DNA of 41,184 nt from a phage: the sequence record NC_093713.1. The stretch is one strand, 5' to 3'. The notes under the pieces are model-generated. The model was not told the DNA's origin, did not search any database, and saw only the letters and a list, made by a program, of their open reading frames with translations. Below, piece after piece: positions 1-41,184 of the stretch. The translations under genes and the position numbers were made by a program. Positions within the stretch are counted from its first letter, which is position 1. Each line of letters begins with the position of its first letter.

Positions 1-2
1 GA

Positions 3-746
3 CTTGCGGGAGTTCCGGAAGATGCGCCTCTCTGGACGGGAAGCCCGCCTTGCCAACCGTTTAGCGCGGCGGGAAAGCAACTCGGACAGTTCGACCCGAG
101 ACACCTCGCACCTGTGTTCCTCGACCTTATCAGCGAGTGCCGACCTCCAGTCCTCTTTGGGGAGCAGGTTGCGCCAGCAATTGCAAAATCGTGGATGTGC
201 GATTTACAAACTCACCTGGAAGGAGAAGACTACGCCGTCGGGTTTGCCGTACTCCCAGCTTGTAGCGTCGGCGCACCGCACAAACGCGACAGACTGTTCT
301 TCGGCGCGCACAGACTGGCCCACACCGGCGGTATCACTGATAACAAACGACGTGAACATGCGCAGCACAGACGGCAGGACGAAACCGAACAAACTGGGAT
401 GGGCCGCTGCGATGGCGGCTTGGCCTACACCGACAGCGAACGACTACAGGGGGAGCGGAGAGACAGTGATTCGCAAGGACGGGAAGGACAGGACATTCGA
501 CAGGCTGGACTACTCGACGGAGCAGGGTCTGAAAATAACACAACCTATTCGCATCACGGCTTCTGGTCAGATGCTGACTGGCTCGGATGCCGGGATGGGA
601 AATTCAGGCCAGTTGAACCCGGCGCATTCCCGCTGGCTAATGGGATACCCGCCAGAGTGGGACGATTGCGCGGTTATGGCAATGCCATCGTCCCGCAAGT
701 AGCCGCTGAATTTATAAAGGCATTCATGGGGGCGGTAAATGAGTAA
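3..746 (+). CDS. DNA (cytosine-5)-methyltransferase, 3' portion (N-terminus is at the window end, 41003..41184); conserved motifs are split between two reading frames
   Basis: Frame 3 carries PCQPFSAAG (motif IV), PHKRDRLFFGAH (motif VIII) and C-terminal GNAIVPQVAAEFIKA (motif X). Frame 1 carries WPTP repeats and LNPAHSRWLMGYPPEWD (motif IX-like). Both frames are open over ~700 bp. Confidence 0.6.
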   Translation, partial: LAGVPEDAPLWTGSPPCQPFSAAGKQLGQFDPRHLAPVFLDLISECRPPVLFGEQVAPAIAKSWMCDLQTHLEGEDYAVGFAVLPACSVGAPHKRDRLFFGAHRLAHTGGITDNKRREHAQHRRQDETEQTGMGRCDGGLAYTDSERLQGERRDSDSQGREGQDIRQAGLLDGAGSENNTTYSHHGFWSDADWLGCRDGKFRPVEPGAFPLANGIPARVGRLRGYGNAIVPQVAAEFIKAFMGAVNE

Positions 747-2163
747 GTTTCAAAGGCGCGAATACCAGAAGCTCATGACTTCGTTCATGCTGCGGCACCA
801 TCGCTGCAATATCTGGGCGAGCATGGGCAGCGGTAAGTCGGGGTCAACGTTGTGGGTTCTCAATCGACTGTTCCGTAATGGGCAACTTAATGACGACGAC
901 CGAGTGTTAATTCTGGCTCCTTTACGTGTTGCGTCAGGTACGTGGCCCGCGGAACAGGCATGTTGGAACTTCCCCTGTCTGAGTGTCGTAGACGCAACCG
1001 GTTCAGAGAAGCGCCGTATCGCGGCGCTGGAGTCAGATGCTAACGTGGTGTGCACAAACTACGAAGTTATCGAGTGGCTGATTGACTACTACGGCAAAGA
1101 CGACTGGCCTTTTACGGTTATCGTTGCTGATGAGAGCACGAAGCTGAAATCTTTCCGTAGCCGTTCTGGAGGAAGCAAACGGGCTAAGGCGCTAAGCAAA
1201 GTGGCGTTCGGAAAGGTTAAGCGTTTCATTAACCTGACAGGCACACCGTCGCCGAACGGCCTCAAGGACTTGTGGGGGCAGAACTGGTTTATCGACGCTG
1301 GCGAGCGCCTTGGTTCTTCGTACACGGCATTCACAGACCGCTGGTTTAACTCGGTACAGAAAGGGAAATCCGCGATGGCGCGGGAGTATCACGCACGACC
1401 GGGTGCGGATAATGAGATTCATCAGAAGATGAAAGACATTAGTCTCACGATTGACGCCGCCGAGTGGTTTGGATGTGAAGCGCCGATTATTGTACCAGTG
1501 GAAATTGACCTGCCGAAGAAAGCGCGTCAGGCATATACCGATATGGAGGAGAAGTTATTTGCGGAACTGGAGAGCGGAGAAGTGGAAGCGGCTAACGCGG
1601 CGGCGAAGACGTCGAAGTGTTTGCAGATTGCTTCTGGTGCTGTGTATGTATCAGGGCCAGACGGAGAAGCAACCAAAGACTGGGAGAAAGTGCACGACAC
1701 GAAACTGGATGCGCTGGAGTCAATTGTTGAGGAGTTACAGGGTGCTCCGCTACTGGTAGCCTATCAGTTCAAGCACGAACTGGAGCGTATCCTGAAACGT
1801 TTCCCGCAGGCGCAGGCATTCGCGAAAGGTGCTAAGGGTAATAAGCAGATGGAAGCATGGAACCGCGGCGAAATCGAAATCTTATGCGTGCATCCTGCGT
1901 CGGCCGGACATGGTTTGAATTTACAGGACGGCGGACATCATCTGGCATTCATCTCGCAAGGCTGGAACCTTGAGCACTATTTGCAGGTTGTCGAGCGCAT
2001 AGGCCCAGTTCGCCAGAAGCAGGCAGGCCACGAACGCCCGGTGTTCCTGTATCACATCGTTGCTAAAGACACACTGGACGAGGTTGTTGCCGCGCGTACC
2101 GACGAGAAGAAATCGGTACAGGAAGAGTTGCTTAACTACATGAAGAGACGAGGTAAGAAATGA
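739..2163 (+). CDS. SNF2/DEAD-like superfamily 2 helicase
   Basis: 474 aa; Walker A GSGKSGS, DExx-like VIVADEST, motif III LTGTPSPN; ATG with upstream G-rich SD; overlaps methyltransferase stop. Confidence 0.8.
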   Translation: MSKFQRREYQKLMTSFMLRHHRCNIWASMGSGKSGSTLWVLNRLFRNGQLNDDDRVLILAPLRVASGTWPAEQACWNFPCLSVVDATGSEKRRIAALESDANVVCTNYEVIEWLIDYYGKDDWPFTVIVADESTKLKSFRSRSGGSKRAKALSKVAFGKVKRFINLTGTPSPNGLKDLWGQNWFIDAGERLGSSYTAFTDRWFNSVQKGKSAMAREYHARPGADNEIHQKMKDISLTIDAAEWFGCEAPIIVPVEIDLPKKARQAYTDMEEKLFAELESGEVEAANAAAKTSKCLQIASGAVYVSGPDGEATKDWEKVHDTKLDALESIVEELQGAPLLVAYQFKHELERILKRFPQAQAFAKGAKGNKQMEAWNRGEIEILCVHPASAGHGLNLQDGGHHLAFISQGWNLEHYLQVVERIGPVRQKQAGHERPVFLYHIVAKDTLDEVVAARTDEKKSVQEELLNYMKRRGKK

Positions 2164-2300: not shown

Positions 2301-2333
2301 AAAGGCCCCGTTCGGGGCCTTAGTTTTATTTAT
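2301..2333. terminator. bidirectional rho-independent terminator between convergent helicase operon and tailspike
   Basis: AAGGCCCCG-TT-CGGGGCCTT stem with T-runs on both strands; near-identical sequence recurs at 14826..14856. Confidence 0.6.
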
Positions 2334-5280
2334 CTTCTAGTGCTGCCAACCTCTTATCGAACTCGCGCATCTTCTTACGCTGATAGGCAATCTCTATGAA
2401 GAACATCTGGTCCGCCCTAACCCCCCATCTGCCGCCGGGAGGGGATACTTGTACAGTCTGGCCATCTTCATCAATATCATACGCGGCTTCAATTGAGTCG
2501 TAGCACAAGAAAGCATATTTACAATCGGTAGAATCTTTCTCCATAAGCCCATGTTTGACCAAGATGTCTCGCACATCTTGGGCTATCACACCGAAGTGTA
2601 TCCTTGCCGTGTCGCCCTTGATTGCTAGGCTTTCAAGCCACTTAAAAGATATTACATGTATATCTTCCCATGCGGTAAGGAGTTGTCCCTCAATTTCCTC
2701 TTTGTTCGTCTTAAGCGTACCATCGGACGTGTTTATCGTACCGGTGGCCGCGTACACCGTAGTCCACCTGTTACCTGCCGAACCTAAAGACACTTGCGAG
2801 TCTAAGTAAGGAAGGAAATTGTTGAATGAGTAGAAGCCTCCTGACGCATACATAATAGCCCTGTTAGGCGTTGCATGGTTCGACCCGTACAGTTGCAGCA
2901 ACGCACCATCGGAACTGGACGCACCATCACCACCGCTAACTATCAGTCTTTGACTCGATGGGGTTTTAGTGGGGACTGTTTTTGAAATCAGCCCGTAATC
3001 ACCATCAAACCGTGCACGCACGGCAGACTGTTGTGTACCATCGTATTCCAGACCCGTTACATGCAGGGAGTACACGCTTACATCATTATCAAACGTTAAA
3101 GGTGCTTCTACATGACGTACACCATCTACCCCCATGACGACAGGTAGTGTACGGTTAGGCGTTGCTCCGTATTTGAAATCACGGGATACATACGGGTGGT
3201 CTTCAATCTTTATCCGGTAACTATATAAGTCAGCCGGATGCCCATCATGTTTGTACCATAACTTCGCACTGTTATCCCCTATGCTCCAGGGAGAGAAGAA
3301 GTCTTCCCCACCAAAGATATAGTACAACCAGCCATCTTTAACACAGACAGAGCCGACGCCGACAGCAGAGTTAACAATATGACCTTGATATATTTGGTCG
3401 GTAATATTAAACCACTGAACATCATCTAAAGATGAAGGCCAGGACGACACATTAACTTTGCACATAAAGGTCCGTGGATACGAACCTTCATAGCGGCGGT
3501 CCGGCTCGCCTCCTTCCCACTCGCCAAAGGCACGTTCTGTACCAAAGATGTAGAGATAGTCACCTACTTTAGCGAACGGAAGATTGGAGTGATGTACATT
3601 GTTCGGAAATCGCAAGTAGCTCCAGTTTTGCCCAGAATCGGTGCTCATCGCCAGTGTAGAGCCAGGGGAAGTAGGTAATGTGCCGCGTGTGGTAAGGTAG
3701 AGCACACCTCCATAACTTTTCACGCACGGTTCAGAAGCGTTATCAGCGTATGCCTGAGCGACAGTGCGACGAACGAATACGCCCGGGTTGTCATAAACGT
3801 TACTAAAATACAAGACGCCAAGACGACGAGGGGACACATCGCCGTTGTGGTAGCCGACAGCGATAGTGTAGTTAGTATCATCTATAACCGCAAAACTATG
3901 TGTCTCCGTGACACACAAATCAGCGTTAGTGGAGTATGCTACCCCCGGCAATTCGGTAATTTCCCACGGGCTGTCCCAGAATCGCGTTGCGAAGTTCCAG
4001 GCAACACCCGCATTGTTTATGGAGGAACTCGCAGGGCTTGAGAGCGTAACAGTGAACGTATTTCGGTTAATTATAGACGAAACCGTCATATTACCCGATA
4101 CGCCAGTTGCCGATGTATTAGAGAAGTTAACCGCATCTCCTGCTTTTAGGCCATGATTTTCTATGACAATGGTAGCAGTAGTGGAGCCAGAACTAATAGT
4201 TATTCCGCCGGTTGGGTGTCTGAAATACGGCATTGGGCGTGACCAAAGTTCTGCCTTCTTCATCCGCATATTAGATAAGTAGCGGGTTTCTATAACTGCA
4301 TATAATCGGTTGCCGCACGTACCCATGCTCATGCAGTGGTAGTTAACTCTGTCCGCAGAAACACTAGCATTATAGTCAGCATGGATTGGAGTCAACCACT
4401 CAGGCATTGACCAAGTCTGCCCGTCGTCACCAGAGCGAACCCAAGCTACATGTAAGTTTTGAACGCCATGTCGTTCGCCCGCCATAAACGGGGCGTAAAT
4501 AACATGGTCGTAGACGAAAGTTTTATCCTGCGTCCAAGCGTTGTAGAACGGGGTATCCGTCACCTTAGTTAGTGAGCCGTTAAAGAAGCCATCAGCTACA
4601 TAAGTAAGCGGTTGCCCGGCTACGCGCTCGTAAACGAATGCAGCATTCTTAAATTTACTAATGTCAGGTAATTGGGAAACTTTATAAGTCAAACCCCTGC
4701 CGTCTATAATCCAATTGTTGGGAGAAGCTGCTAATACATTAAAAATAGATTGAGTATCATCAGTTACACCGTCGCCCACGGCACCCCATGCGCGCGGGTC
4801 GTATTCGTCCTTCCATCGCGCCATATGTAAATCTGGGTACAGAATTGCACCGTTTACATCAGATATTTGCTGCCGCAGTATGACCGACCCGACGGGCTGC
4901 CACGCCCCATCTGCCACGCCACCGGTGGACTGCGGAGAAGATAACGCGGGGATAATTTTTGGTAGAGCACCCAACCAATAGTACCAATCCCCGTCACCGC
5001 CAGAGGACGACGGCCACAAAACTGCGGTGTTTCGGTCGTTAGCGGATAGTGTACCGCCTGACGTGAAATCAAAATCTGCCAGTTTAAAACCTGCGTCACG
5101 CAACACGGCGGGGAGTGTCTTCTGCGTCTGCCCTGTAACCTGATTTGTTGCGTAATCAATATCAGCACCAGTAGCAACACCACCGGATTTACCGGTGATA
5201 ACTTCGGCTTCGAAAATCTGGTGTTTCTTAGCGGTTTGTAAATCCGCCAGGCTTAAAACGTCACCGCATCCGCTTGACAT
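2326..5280 (-). CDS. tailspike, endosialidase-like, with C-terminal intramolecular chaperone (peptidase S74-like) domain
   Basis: 984 aa; two Asp-box motifs (SGDDGQTW, STDSGQNW); pectate-lyase-like WGAVGDGVTDDT; C-terminal GNRW...TINTSDGTLKTNKEEIEG resembling the autocleaving chaperone domain of endosialidase-type tailspikes; SD AGAGGA before the ATG. Confidence 0.7.
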   Translation of the reverse strand: MSSGCGDVLSLADLQTAKKHQIFEAEVITGKSGGVATGADIDYATNQVTGQTQKTLPAVLRDAGFKLADFDFTSGGTLSANDRNTAVLWPSSSGGDGDWYYWLGALPKIIPALSSPQSTGGVADGAWQPVGSVILRQQISDVNGAILYPDLHMARWKDEYDPRAWGAVGDGVTDDTQSIFNVLAASPNNWIIDGRGLTYKVSQLPDISKFKNAAFVYERVAGQPLTYVADGFFNGSLTKVTDTPFYNAWTQDKTFVYDHVIYAPFMAGERHGVQNLHVAWVRSGDDGQTWSMPEWLTPIHADYNASVSADRVNYHCMSMGTCGNRLYAVIETRYLSNMRMKKAELWSRPMPYFRHPTGGITISSGSTTATIVIENHGLKAGDAVNFSNTSATGVSGNMTVSSIINRNTFTVTLSSPASSSINNAGVAWNFATRFWDSPWEITELPGVAYSTNADLCVTETHSFAVIDDTNYTIAVGYHNGDVSPRRLGVLYFSNVYDNPGVFVRRTVAQAYADNASEPCVKSYGGVLYLTTRGTLPTSPGSTLAMSTDSGQNWSYLRFPNNVHHSNLPFAKVGDYLYIFGTERAFGEWEGGEPDRRYEGSYPRTFMCKVNVSSWPSSLDDVQWFNITDQIYQGHIVNSAVGVGSVCVKDGWLYYIFGGEDFFSPWSIGDNSAKLWYKHDGHPADLYSYRIKIEDHPYVSRDFKYGATPNRTLPVVMGVDGVRHVEAPLTFDNDVSVYSLHVTGLEYDGTQQSAVRARFDGDYGLISKTVPTKTPSSQRLIVSGGDGASSSDGALLQLYGSNHATPNRAIMYASGGFYSFNNFLPYLDSQVSLGSAGNRWTTVYAATGTINTSDGTLKTNKEEIEGQLLTAWEDIHVISFKWLESLAIKGDTARIHFGVIAQDVRDILVKHGLMEKDSTDCKYAFLCYDSIEAAYDIDEDGQTVQVSPPGGRWGVRADQMFFIEIAYQRKKMREFDKRLAALEDK

Positions 5281-40814: not shown

Positions 40815-41006
40815 ATGAAACACGAATATGACCGCAAACCAGCACGTGACATCGTACCTGGCGATATGATTTTCAACGTTAAGACCCGCCACCCTGTTGC
40901 CGTTGATACGGTGTACGTCGAGTCAAACGGTAAACTGGTTATCGAAGATGTAACCGGTAACGTTACGGCGTTCGGTCGTAAAGAGTTAGTTCTGGTGGCG
41001 AAATGA
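40815..41006 (+). CDS. hypothetical protein (63 aa)
   Basis: ORF track; SD AAGGAA. Confidence 0.45.
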   Translation: MKHEYDRKPARDIVPGDMIFNVKTRHPVAVDTVYVESNGKLVIEDVTGNVTAFGRKELVLVAK

Positions 41007-41184
41007 ACTATTACAATGAATGGGATAAAGGCGCAGCCGCGTGGCTGCGTGAGTTGATAAAACAGGGTCACATACCTTTTGGAGTTGTAGATGAAAGAAG
41101 CATTACCGAAGTTAAGCCAGAAGACCTTGACGGGTTCACCCAGTGTCATTTTTTCGCGGGTATCGGCGGCTGGCCTCTCGCGCT
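41003..41184 (+). CDS. DNA (cytosine-5)-methyltransferase, N-terminal fragment (runs off the window end)
   Basis: Hand-translated MNYYNEWDKGAAAWLRELIKQGHIPFGVVDERSITEVKPEDLDGFTQCHFFAGIGGWPLA; motif I FAGIGG; ATGA overlap with upstream gene. Confidence 0.65.
   Translation, partial: MNYYNEWDKGAAAWLRELIKQGHIPFGVVDERSITEVKPEDLDGFTQCHFFAGIGGWPLA

Follow-up and report, generated by a model that had tools for sequence, protein, structure and literature searches.

A nested second frame in an orphan C5-cytosine methyltransferase gene of Kagunavirus-related phages, candidate for a recognition subunit

Two open frames across one methyltransferase gene

The phage sequence NC_093713.1, analyzed here over its whole length of 41,184 nucleotides (nt; hereafter, the window), begins with a stretch of about 700 nt in which two reading frames of the same strand are open at once and the conserved motifs of a C5-cytosine methyltransferase appear to be divided between them. 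The locus thus raises the question of whether the gene is damaged, is read by frameshifting, carries a fortuitous open frame or encodes two proteins. We show that both frames are maintained as open and that purifying selection acts on each of them in segments of its own. The likeliest explanation is a gene within a gene, in which a 309-amino acid (aa) catalytic protein, alpha, would be complemented by a nested 265-aa protein, beta.

Motifs IV, VI, VIII and X could be read directly in frame 3, which encodes alpha, and WPTP repeats together with LNPAHSRWLMGYPPEW in frame 1, which encodes beta (Table 1), whereas frame 2 contains many stops across positions 1-746. An earlier note on this DNA, made from the letters alone, had placed motifs IV, VIII and X and the middle region in the same two frames, and its statement that a full-length frame-3 protein can be made also holds, frame 3 being open throughout. 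The note was likewise right to identify positions 1-746 as methyltransferase, but this region is only the 3' four fifths of the gene, the ATG of which lies at 41003, at the opposite end of the window, where MNYYNEWDK...FAGIGGWPLAL is encoded. The window is very probably a linearized phage genome with the cut falling inside the methyltransferase gene; by comparison with the phages K1ind2, K1ind3 and fEg-Eco06, its two ends join with 2 bases (CA) missing. Beta starts 88 nt into alpha, ends 44 nt before the alpha stop and is wholly nested within it in the +1 frame.

Both frames are kept open and constrained

Synonymous codons were shuffled within each alpha gene, with the protein and codon usage kept (1000 shuffles for each of 54 sequences). 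For 53 of the 54 sequences, 0-0.4% of the shuffles left the +1 frame open for as long as in the real gene; for the remaining one, the figure was 3.2%. In the window itself, none of the 1000 shuffles did so, in line with the remark in the earlier note that two long open frames over the same DNA are unlikely by chance; the +2 frame has 19 stops in the window and 9-33 per sequence overall. Stops in the +1 frame are confined to the two ends of alpha: its initial ~106 nt, and its final ~180 nt beyond the end of beta. Within the initial ~100 nt there are 1-5 of these stops, which cease at the Shine-Dalgarno (SD)-like sequence and ATG of beta. Conversely, in the middle region, the alpha frame contains no stops in 39 sequences, against 112 expected from beta-synonymous shuffles, and the third frame contains 226. 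Alpha is therefore probably read straight through this region. Both frames are actively kept open, even where the amino acid sequence is not conserved.

Selection was followed along the gene as the ratio of nonsynonymous to synonymous differences (pN/pS; Nei-Gojobori method, 18 Kagunavirus-like sequences, window coordinates). The values for alpha and beta, respectively, were 0.21 and 1.87 at -183..150, 0.37 and 1.02 at 190-306, 0.94 and 0.54 at 307-546, 0.48 and 0.59 at 547-666, and 0.18 and 1.69 at 667-743, and codon-position entropy in 51 sequences gave a pattern in agreement with these ratios. Selection thus tracks frame 3 at either end of the gene and frame 1 in its middle, and 127-306 and 547-680 are under selection in both. 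Conservation of beta starts at about position 127 (SSASA.LQSSLG.RLRQQL..G..Y.L.WK.K.TP.G..Y.Q..AS..RT), some 180 nt upstream of the first of two frame switches supposed in the earlier note (near 300-310 and 665-672), and extends over codons required by alpha for its motifs VI-VIII. Alpha, in turn, is constrained again from about 558, upstream of the second supposed switch, in a segment conserved at the amino acid level down to 44% identity. Neither switch lies in a homopolymer run, as had been noted, but sharp switch points do not exist; instead, two stretches are constrained in both frames. The middle of the frame-3 protein is indeed an out-of-frame, low-complexity translation, although it covers about 80 residues and not ~120 as had been estimated.

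The double constraint is also apparent at the third positions of those alpha codons that are both conserved and four-fold degenerate. The entropy at these sites was 1.48 and 1.35 bits in the alpha-only parts versus 0.73 bits in the overlaps, and 6 of the 19 sites in the overlaps were near-invariant versus none of 34 elsewhere (Mann-Whitney p = 6e-5). Because both frames are constrained over shared stretches, which a single ribosome could not read in both, two products are probably made.

The layout is conserved among relatives

From viral contigs, we retrieved 65 loci whose encoded alpha relatives are 42-93% identical, and analyzed 61 sequences with a complete alpha, the window included; those excluded were truncated contigs or lacked a recognized PCQ, and no locus was excluded for a stop inside alpha. 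An uninterrupted +1 frame of 217-453 codons is present in 60 of the 61 loci, which include alpha proteins as little as 42% identical. In most of them, it opens about 55-124 nt into alpha and closes about 11-83 nt short of the alpha stop, and in a few it extends beyond that stop. Broadly, the stretch reaches from an SD sequence and ATG some 90-110 nt inside the gene to a point about 15-60 nt ahead of the alpha stop; it nearly always bears WPTP motifs, one to five in number, and an LNPxxSxWLMG motif. Nesting of this kind also occurs in Burkholderia phage BcepC6B, Rhodobacter phage RcDora, Xanthomonas phage PhiXhv-28 and Erythrobacter phage ZS04. In the last of these (L072, 618-1715), the 365-aa alpha is unannotated and a minus-strand 'hypothetical protein' is annotated across it. 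A 127-aa 'DNA methyltransferase' of ZS04, considered as a stand-alone protein, was rejected as such: it consists of the last 127 aa of a 318-aa beta nested in the unannotated alpha.

The family is large. At least 8,000 alpha homologues were scored, all of them significant, and the relatives of beta, which are rarely annotated, form 9,398 clusters at 50% identity; beta itself matches the PHROG family phrog_1008. Beta is matched by 241 cultured-phage records, and among 40 of them that were listed, 4 annotate a feature corresponding to beta, the rest only alpha or something unrelated. The earlier note had held that its reading would fail if homologues followed frame 3 throughout. This is the case for the annotated proteins, but frame 1 is conserved as well.

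No single-chain relative with WPTP and motifs IX and X all in the same frame was found among the relatives of beta and alpha. The few proteins that join PF00145 to beta, three sequences in which the alpha N-terminus is fused to the beta frame after residue 164 (P0147), about 118 (P0191) or about 56 (P0142), were rejected as true single-chain enzymes, as each comes from a single assembly and lacks motif VIII, motif X or both; most simply, they appear to result from indels, being either frameshift mutants of the nested pair or assembly errors.

In some relatives, the beta-frame open reading frame (ORF), lacking a stop close to where alpha ends, continues into another domain (L024, 668-2026; also L025 and L066). 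The extension is Endonuclease VII in L024 (PF02945, E = 6e-24), Dam in P0251 (PF05869) and DUF2800 / PD-(D/E)XK in P0252.

The +1 frame of the Kagunavirus group begins at TAG-ATG, the TAG at 41088-41090 directly preceding the ATG at 41091-41093, with GGAG 6 nt upstream. In a more distant group, the beta ATG lies 18 nt further downstream and is preceded at 8 nt by AGGAG, which is built from the invariant Arg-Ser of alpha by means of the rare AGG codon; BcepC6B, though GC-rich, has AGGAG-N8-ATG. At the point where the frame opens, a beta-frame ATG preceded at 4-12 nt by GGAG, GAGG or AGGA is present in 36 of 49 sequences, against a background of 12%. The ~70 codons from this ATG to position 127 are not conserved as protein and contain no stops, which fits a translated, dispensable leader. 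A TTG at 169 was rejected as the start of beta, given that conservation begins at about 127 and the frame is open back to the SD-like sequence and ATG at 41091.

The two predicted proteins

Pfam PF00145 matches the frame-3 product only (57.7 bits, cut-off 22, E = 1.7e-15), and only over profile positions 62-167; TIGR00675 scored 40 bits on alpha, below its cut-off of 100.65. Motifs I, IV, VI, VIII and X all occur in this one polypeptide, the alignment of which to M.HhaI spans residues 2-171 (motifs I and IV-VIII) at a probability of 97%. The sequence YYNEWDK resembles motif II, and the predicted motif order is permuted, II-III-I-IV: alpha residues 3-29 (YYNEWDK...G.V) align to M.HhaI 37-61, motifs II-III (E = 1e-4), and FAGIGG follows at residues 51-56, leading straight into PCQ.

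The alpha alignment consists of two invariant blocks, one from the N-terminus to RLFFGA and the other from FWSDADWLGCRDGKFRPVEPG to the C-terminal end, separated by a low-complexity stretch of variable sequence and length, the proteins being 274-359 aa long. Residues of about 166-245 are hypervariable and of low complexity, with a pN/pS of 0.94 and a predicted local distance difference test score (pLDDT) of 21-39. Between motifs VIII and X of the alpha chain, neither a target-recognition domain nor a clear motif IX was found, only a weak IX-like segment: DGKFRPVEPGAFPLANGIP...GNAIV aligns weakly to M.HhaI 268-316, covering a motif IX-like part and motif X.

Beta is modular, with a conserved head, one to five cassettes with a WPTP-like start, which differ in sequence and number even between close relatives, and a nearly invariant tail, RITASGQ.LTGSDAG....GQLNPAHSRWLMG(F/Y)PPEW. 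In hhalign, NSGQLNPAHSRWLMGYPPEWD of beta falls on M.HhaI 270-290, that is, on motif IX, a weak match (E 0.018, probability 2.5%).

At 598-665, the same DNA yields two motif IX-like peptides in register, DGKFRPVEPGAFPLANGIP of alpha and SGQLNPAHSRWLMGYPPEW of beta, both of which align weakly to M.HhaI 262-290. The proline and glycine codons used there (CCC/CCG and GGG/GGA) allow Pro and Gly to occupy matching positions in both frames.

A candidate heterodimer and the alternatives

We consider it probable that the locus is a conserved gene within a gene, the two polypeptides of which form a heterodimeric orphan methyltransferase, with beta acting as the recognition-bearing small domain docked on alpha. 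We infer this because alpha lacks a constrained variable region, beta is modular with a motif IX-like end, and there is a precedent in M.EcoHK31I, described below. Alpha would be the catalytic, S-adenosylmethionine-binding large domain, comprising motifs II-III-I, IV, VI and VIII, a disordered passenger linker and a conserved C-terminal segment with motif X. Beta, initiated at its own SD sequence and ATG, would consist of a passenger leader, a conserved segment, exchangeable WPTP cassettes and the motif IX-like C-terminus. As the small domain, carrying target recognition and motif IX, beta would dock on alpha to give the active enzyme, which would modify the phage DNA. The WPTP cassettes may determine specificity, so that their exchange would change it, with alpha merely tolerating a different linker. 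For the wider proposition that a large family of orphan C5-methyltransferases of proteobacterial phages and prophages are obligate two-subunit enzymes, encoded by an almost completely nested same-strand pair of about 800 nt, we see the chances as evenly balanced.

Several observations weigh against the heterodimer. Beta has no sequence match in Pfam, NCBIfam or the PDB, and it resembles motif IX weakly (hhalign E about 0.01-0.03, probability under 4%). The alpha segment DGKFRPVEPGAFPLANGIP matches motif IX of M.HhaI as weakly as beta does, so alpha may not depend on beta for this motif. AlphaFold2 predictions of either protein alone were of low confidence, with pLDDT 43.9 for beta (46 sequences) and 45.9 for alpha (23 sequences), the middle of alpha being lowest. 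Finally, one locus among the 61 (L045, 671-1729) has an interrupted beta frame, in which a single stop leaves 203 + 149 aa; decay of this copy or faulty assembly could account for it.

In one alternative, both polypeptides are made but alpha is self-sufficient, and beta serves some other purpose, for instance in regulation, as an accessory that binds DNA or in anti-defence. The conserved C-terminal segment of alpha, which aligns to the motif IX-like part and motif X of M.HhaI, would suit a complete enzyme, and the absence of a detectable domain in beta, together with the passage of its frame into unrelated domains in L024, P0251 and P0252, would suit a separate function. However, between motif VIII and that segment alpha has nothing but an unconstrained low-complexity stretch and, hence, no candidate target-recognition domain. 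Beta, moreover, is invariably inherited together with alpha, its terminal LNPxxSxWLMGxPxEW falls in register with motif IX, and it has the length-variable cassettes expected of a recognition domain. We therefore regard a self-sufficient alpha as rather unlikely.

A single methyltransferase of canonical order could, in principle, be produced by two programmed frameshifts, +1 near 300-310 and -1 near 665-672. Reading frames 3, 1 and 3 in succession gives exactly the order I-VIII, variable region, IX and X, and P0147 corresponds precisely to alpha 1-164 fused to beta 47-177. Yet direct reading of 295-315 and 660-675 revealed no slippery heptamer or homopolymer, and constraint is seen on beta some 180 nt before the first supposed shift, across codons that alpha also needs, and on alpha before the second one. 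Nor is the zero frame closed beyond the junctions, alpha being stop-free through its unconstrained middle, and beta has its own SD-like sequence and ATG directly after an in-frame stop. P0147 itself is a single 3.7-kb assembly without motif X. Such double frameshifting is thus very unlikely.

It is highly improbable that the amino acid and codon composition of alpha has created frame 1 as an untranslated shadow ORF. Off-frame ORFs are commoner in GC-rich genomes, and beta alone is not predicted to fold, but shuffles that preserve alpha almost never keep frame 1 open, frame 1 is under purifying selection where alpha shows none, the four-fold degenerate sites of alpha are frozen in the overlaps, and the early +1 stops end where beta begins. 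The explanation offered in the earlier note, a recent compensating pair of indels or two sequencing errors in this genome, can practically be dismissed: the 2 bases missing at the window junction show that the record is not error-free, but the gene interior is colinear, without indels, with K1ind2/3 (99.1% identity) and fEg-Eco06, and the claim is contradicted by the occurrence of the same layout in 60 of 61 loci and in the 241 cultured-phage records, by the dual constraint and by the SD-like sequence and ATG of beta.

Comparison with known methyltransferases

In its motifs, the proposed catalytic subunit of the heterodimer resembles monomeric M.HhaI (PF00145), with FxGxGG, PCQ, an ENV-like GEQV, the RxR of motif VIII and GNAIVP. 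Unlike M.HhaI, alpha has no folded variable region in the same chain, and its motifs II-III precede motif I.

The orphan multispecific C5-methyltransferases M.SPRI, M.Phi3TI and M.Rho11sI of Bacillus phages have a variable region with several tandem recognition modules, which can be gained or lost. The variable number of modules is shared with the present family, which has one to five WPTP cassettes in beta, whereas the Bacillus phage enzymes are single polypeptides encoded in one frame. To our knowledge, recognition domains of the M.SPRI type show no WPTP motif.

The only natural heterodimeric C5-methyltransferases that we found described in the literature are M.AquI and M.EcoHK31I (PMC3404938). 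M.AquI of Agmenellum quadruplicatum (CYCGRG) is, like the pair proposed here, a natural C5-methyltransferase in two polypeptides that is split within the variable region (PMC3404938). Its split is serial, with motifs I-VIII in alpha and the rest of the variable region plus IX-X in beta, whereas here beta is nested, motif X lies in the alpha frame and beta stops without it.

The closer parallel is M.EcoHK31I of E. coli HK31 (YGGCCR), a heterodimer in which beta is encoded entirely within alpha in a different frame, activity needs both chains, and stepwise removal of the beta N-terminus causes a graded loss of association with alpha (PMC2836561; PMC3404938). As judged from its description, M.EcoHK31I shares with the present pair the architecture of a nested beta; beta here ends in a sequence weakly similar to motif IX, and its N-terminal part is not conserved. 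Differences are that M.EcoHK31I belongs to a restriction-modification system, and the present gene is an orphan phage gene beside a helicase; that beta here spans about 85% of alpha; and that the target-recognition domain of M.EcoHK31I has been assigned to alpha, whereas here the constrained, modular variable region is in beta and that of alpha is a passenger.

The overlapping ORF as such is not new, having been present in GenBank since 2010 and in PHROGs. In the literature on overlapping-frame phage, Mte8 and Kagunavirus methyltransferases, we found no description of the architecture, its conservation or its likely function. If the heterodimer is real, the nested design would be common in phages, with M.EcoHK31I one case of it and not a curiosity, and few dual-coding gene pairs of bacteriophages would be longer or more widespread; the passenger stretch of each protein would be merely the out-of-frame translation of the other. 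The recognition subunit would then have been missed by most genome annotations, prediction of methylation specificity from the annotated protein would fail, and alpha cloned alone may be inactive. The gene pair also offers a clean natural system for two proteins evolving on one DNA, with cassette exchange set against a tolerated linker.

Annotation and genome context

The coordinates of the two coding sequences and of their motifs are collected in Table 1. The region shares 99.1% identity with K1ind2 and K1ind3, both Kagunavirus phages, and 92-95% with numerous further genomes of this genus; in this genome, the gene is ordinary for its genus and undamaged. In K1ind1/2/3, K1G and K1H, the two frames are annotated as separate overlapping genes, alpha (frame 3) as a 309-aa 'putative C-specific methylase' and beta (frame 1) as a 265-aa 'putative Mte8-like protein', whereas most other records annotate alpha alone. 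The record of Escherichia phage P AB-2017 has as its 'Mte8-like protein' a 226-aa fragment from an ATG at 22, because the genome is cut inside the gene and 2 bases are missing. The methyltransferase gene has been listed among those 'divergent' in phage P (PMC5582158), a status that may be an artefact of the position of the cut.

Table 1. Positions in the window of alpha, beta, their motifs and shared stretches, and the adjacent gene
Feature	Position	Strand	Remarks
Alpha coding sequence, 5' part	41003..41184	+	codons 1-60 plus 2 nt; resumes at window position 1 after the missing CA
Alpha coding sequence, 3' part	3..746	+	frame 3, open 3-743, stop 744-746; PCQ 48-56, FGEQV 156-170, PHKRDRLFFGAH 276-311, GYGNAIVPQV 672-701
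Alpha, motif II-like	41009-41029		YYNEWDK
Alpha, motif I	41153-41170		FAGIGG
Alpha, motif IV	48-56		PCQ, within SPPCQPFS
Alpha, motif VI	156-170		LFGEQV; GEQV 159-170, ENV variant
Alpha, motif VIII	276-311		APHKRDRLFFGAH; HKRDR 279-293
Alpha, motif X	672-701		GYGNAIVPQV; GNAIVP 678-695
SD-like core GGAG	41081..41084	+	6 nt before the beta ATG
Beta coding sequence, 5' part	41091..41184	+	ATG 41091-41093, +1 frame relative to alpha; begins the non-conserved passenger leader
Beta coding sequence, 3' part	1..702	+	frame 1, open 1-699, stop 700-702
Beta, first WPTP	316-327		in DWPTP
Beta, second WPTP	421-432		in AAWPTPTAND
Beta, motif IX-like	610-660		QLNPAHSRWLMGYPPEW
Upstream overlap (B)	127..306	+	constrained in both frames; beta over alpha motifs VI-VIII
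Middle region	312..557	+	frame 1, variable WPTP cassettes under purifying selection; frame 3, stop-free hypervariable passenger linker
Downstream overlap (D)	547..680	+	both frames constrained; beta RITASGQMLTGSDAG...QLNPAHSRWLMGYPPEW (610-660, motif IX-like); alpha FWSDADWLGCRDGKFRPVEPGAFPLANGIPARVGRL
Helicase gene	739..2163	+	downstream of alpha; context, not part of the methyltransferase

No endonuclease gene, and hence no cognate restriction partner, is adjacent among the annotated neighbours inspected in relatives, which comprise a VRR-NUC domain protein, small hypothetical proteins, a DNA polymerase and the helicase. In the window, the helicase ATG (739-741) overlaps the alpha stop in the sequence ATGAGTAA, an overlap that suggests translational coupling of the two genes.

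Elsewhere in the window, a minus-strand gene at 2326-5280 encodes a 984-aa tailspike with the full endosialidase set (End_N_terminal, End_beta_propel, End_beta_barrel and End_tail_spike), ending in a C-terminal Peptidase_S74 chaperone. From these domains, the phage is predicted to carry a K1-capsule-degrading spike. Its nearest relatives by the methyltransferase region are, in contrast, K1ind2 and K1ind3, in whose names we take 'ind' to mark K1-capsule-independent isolates.

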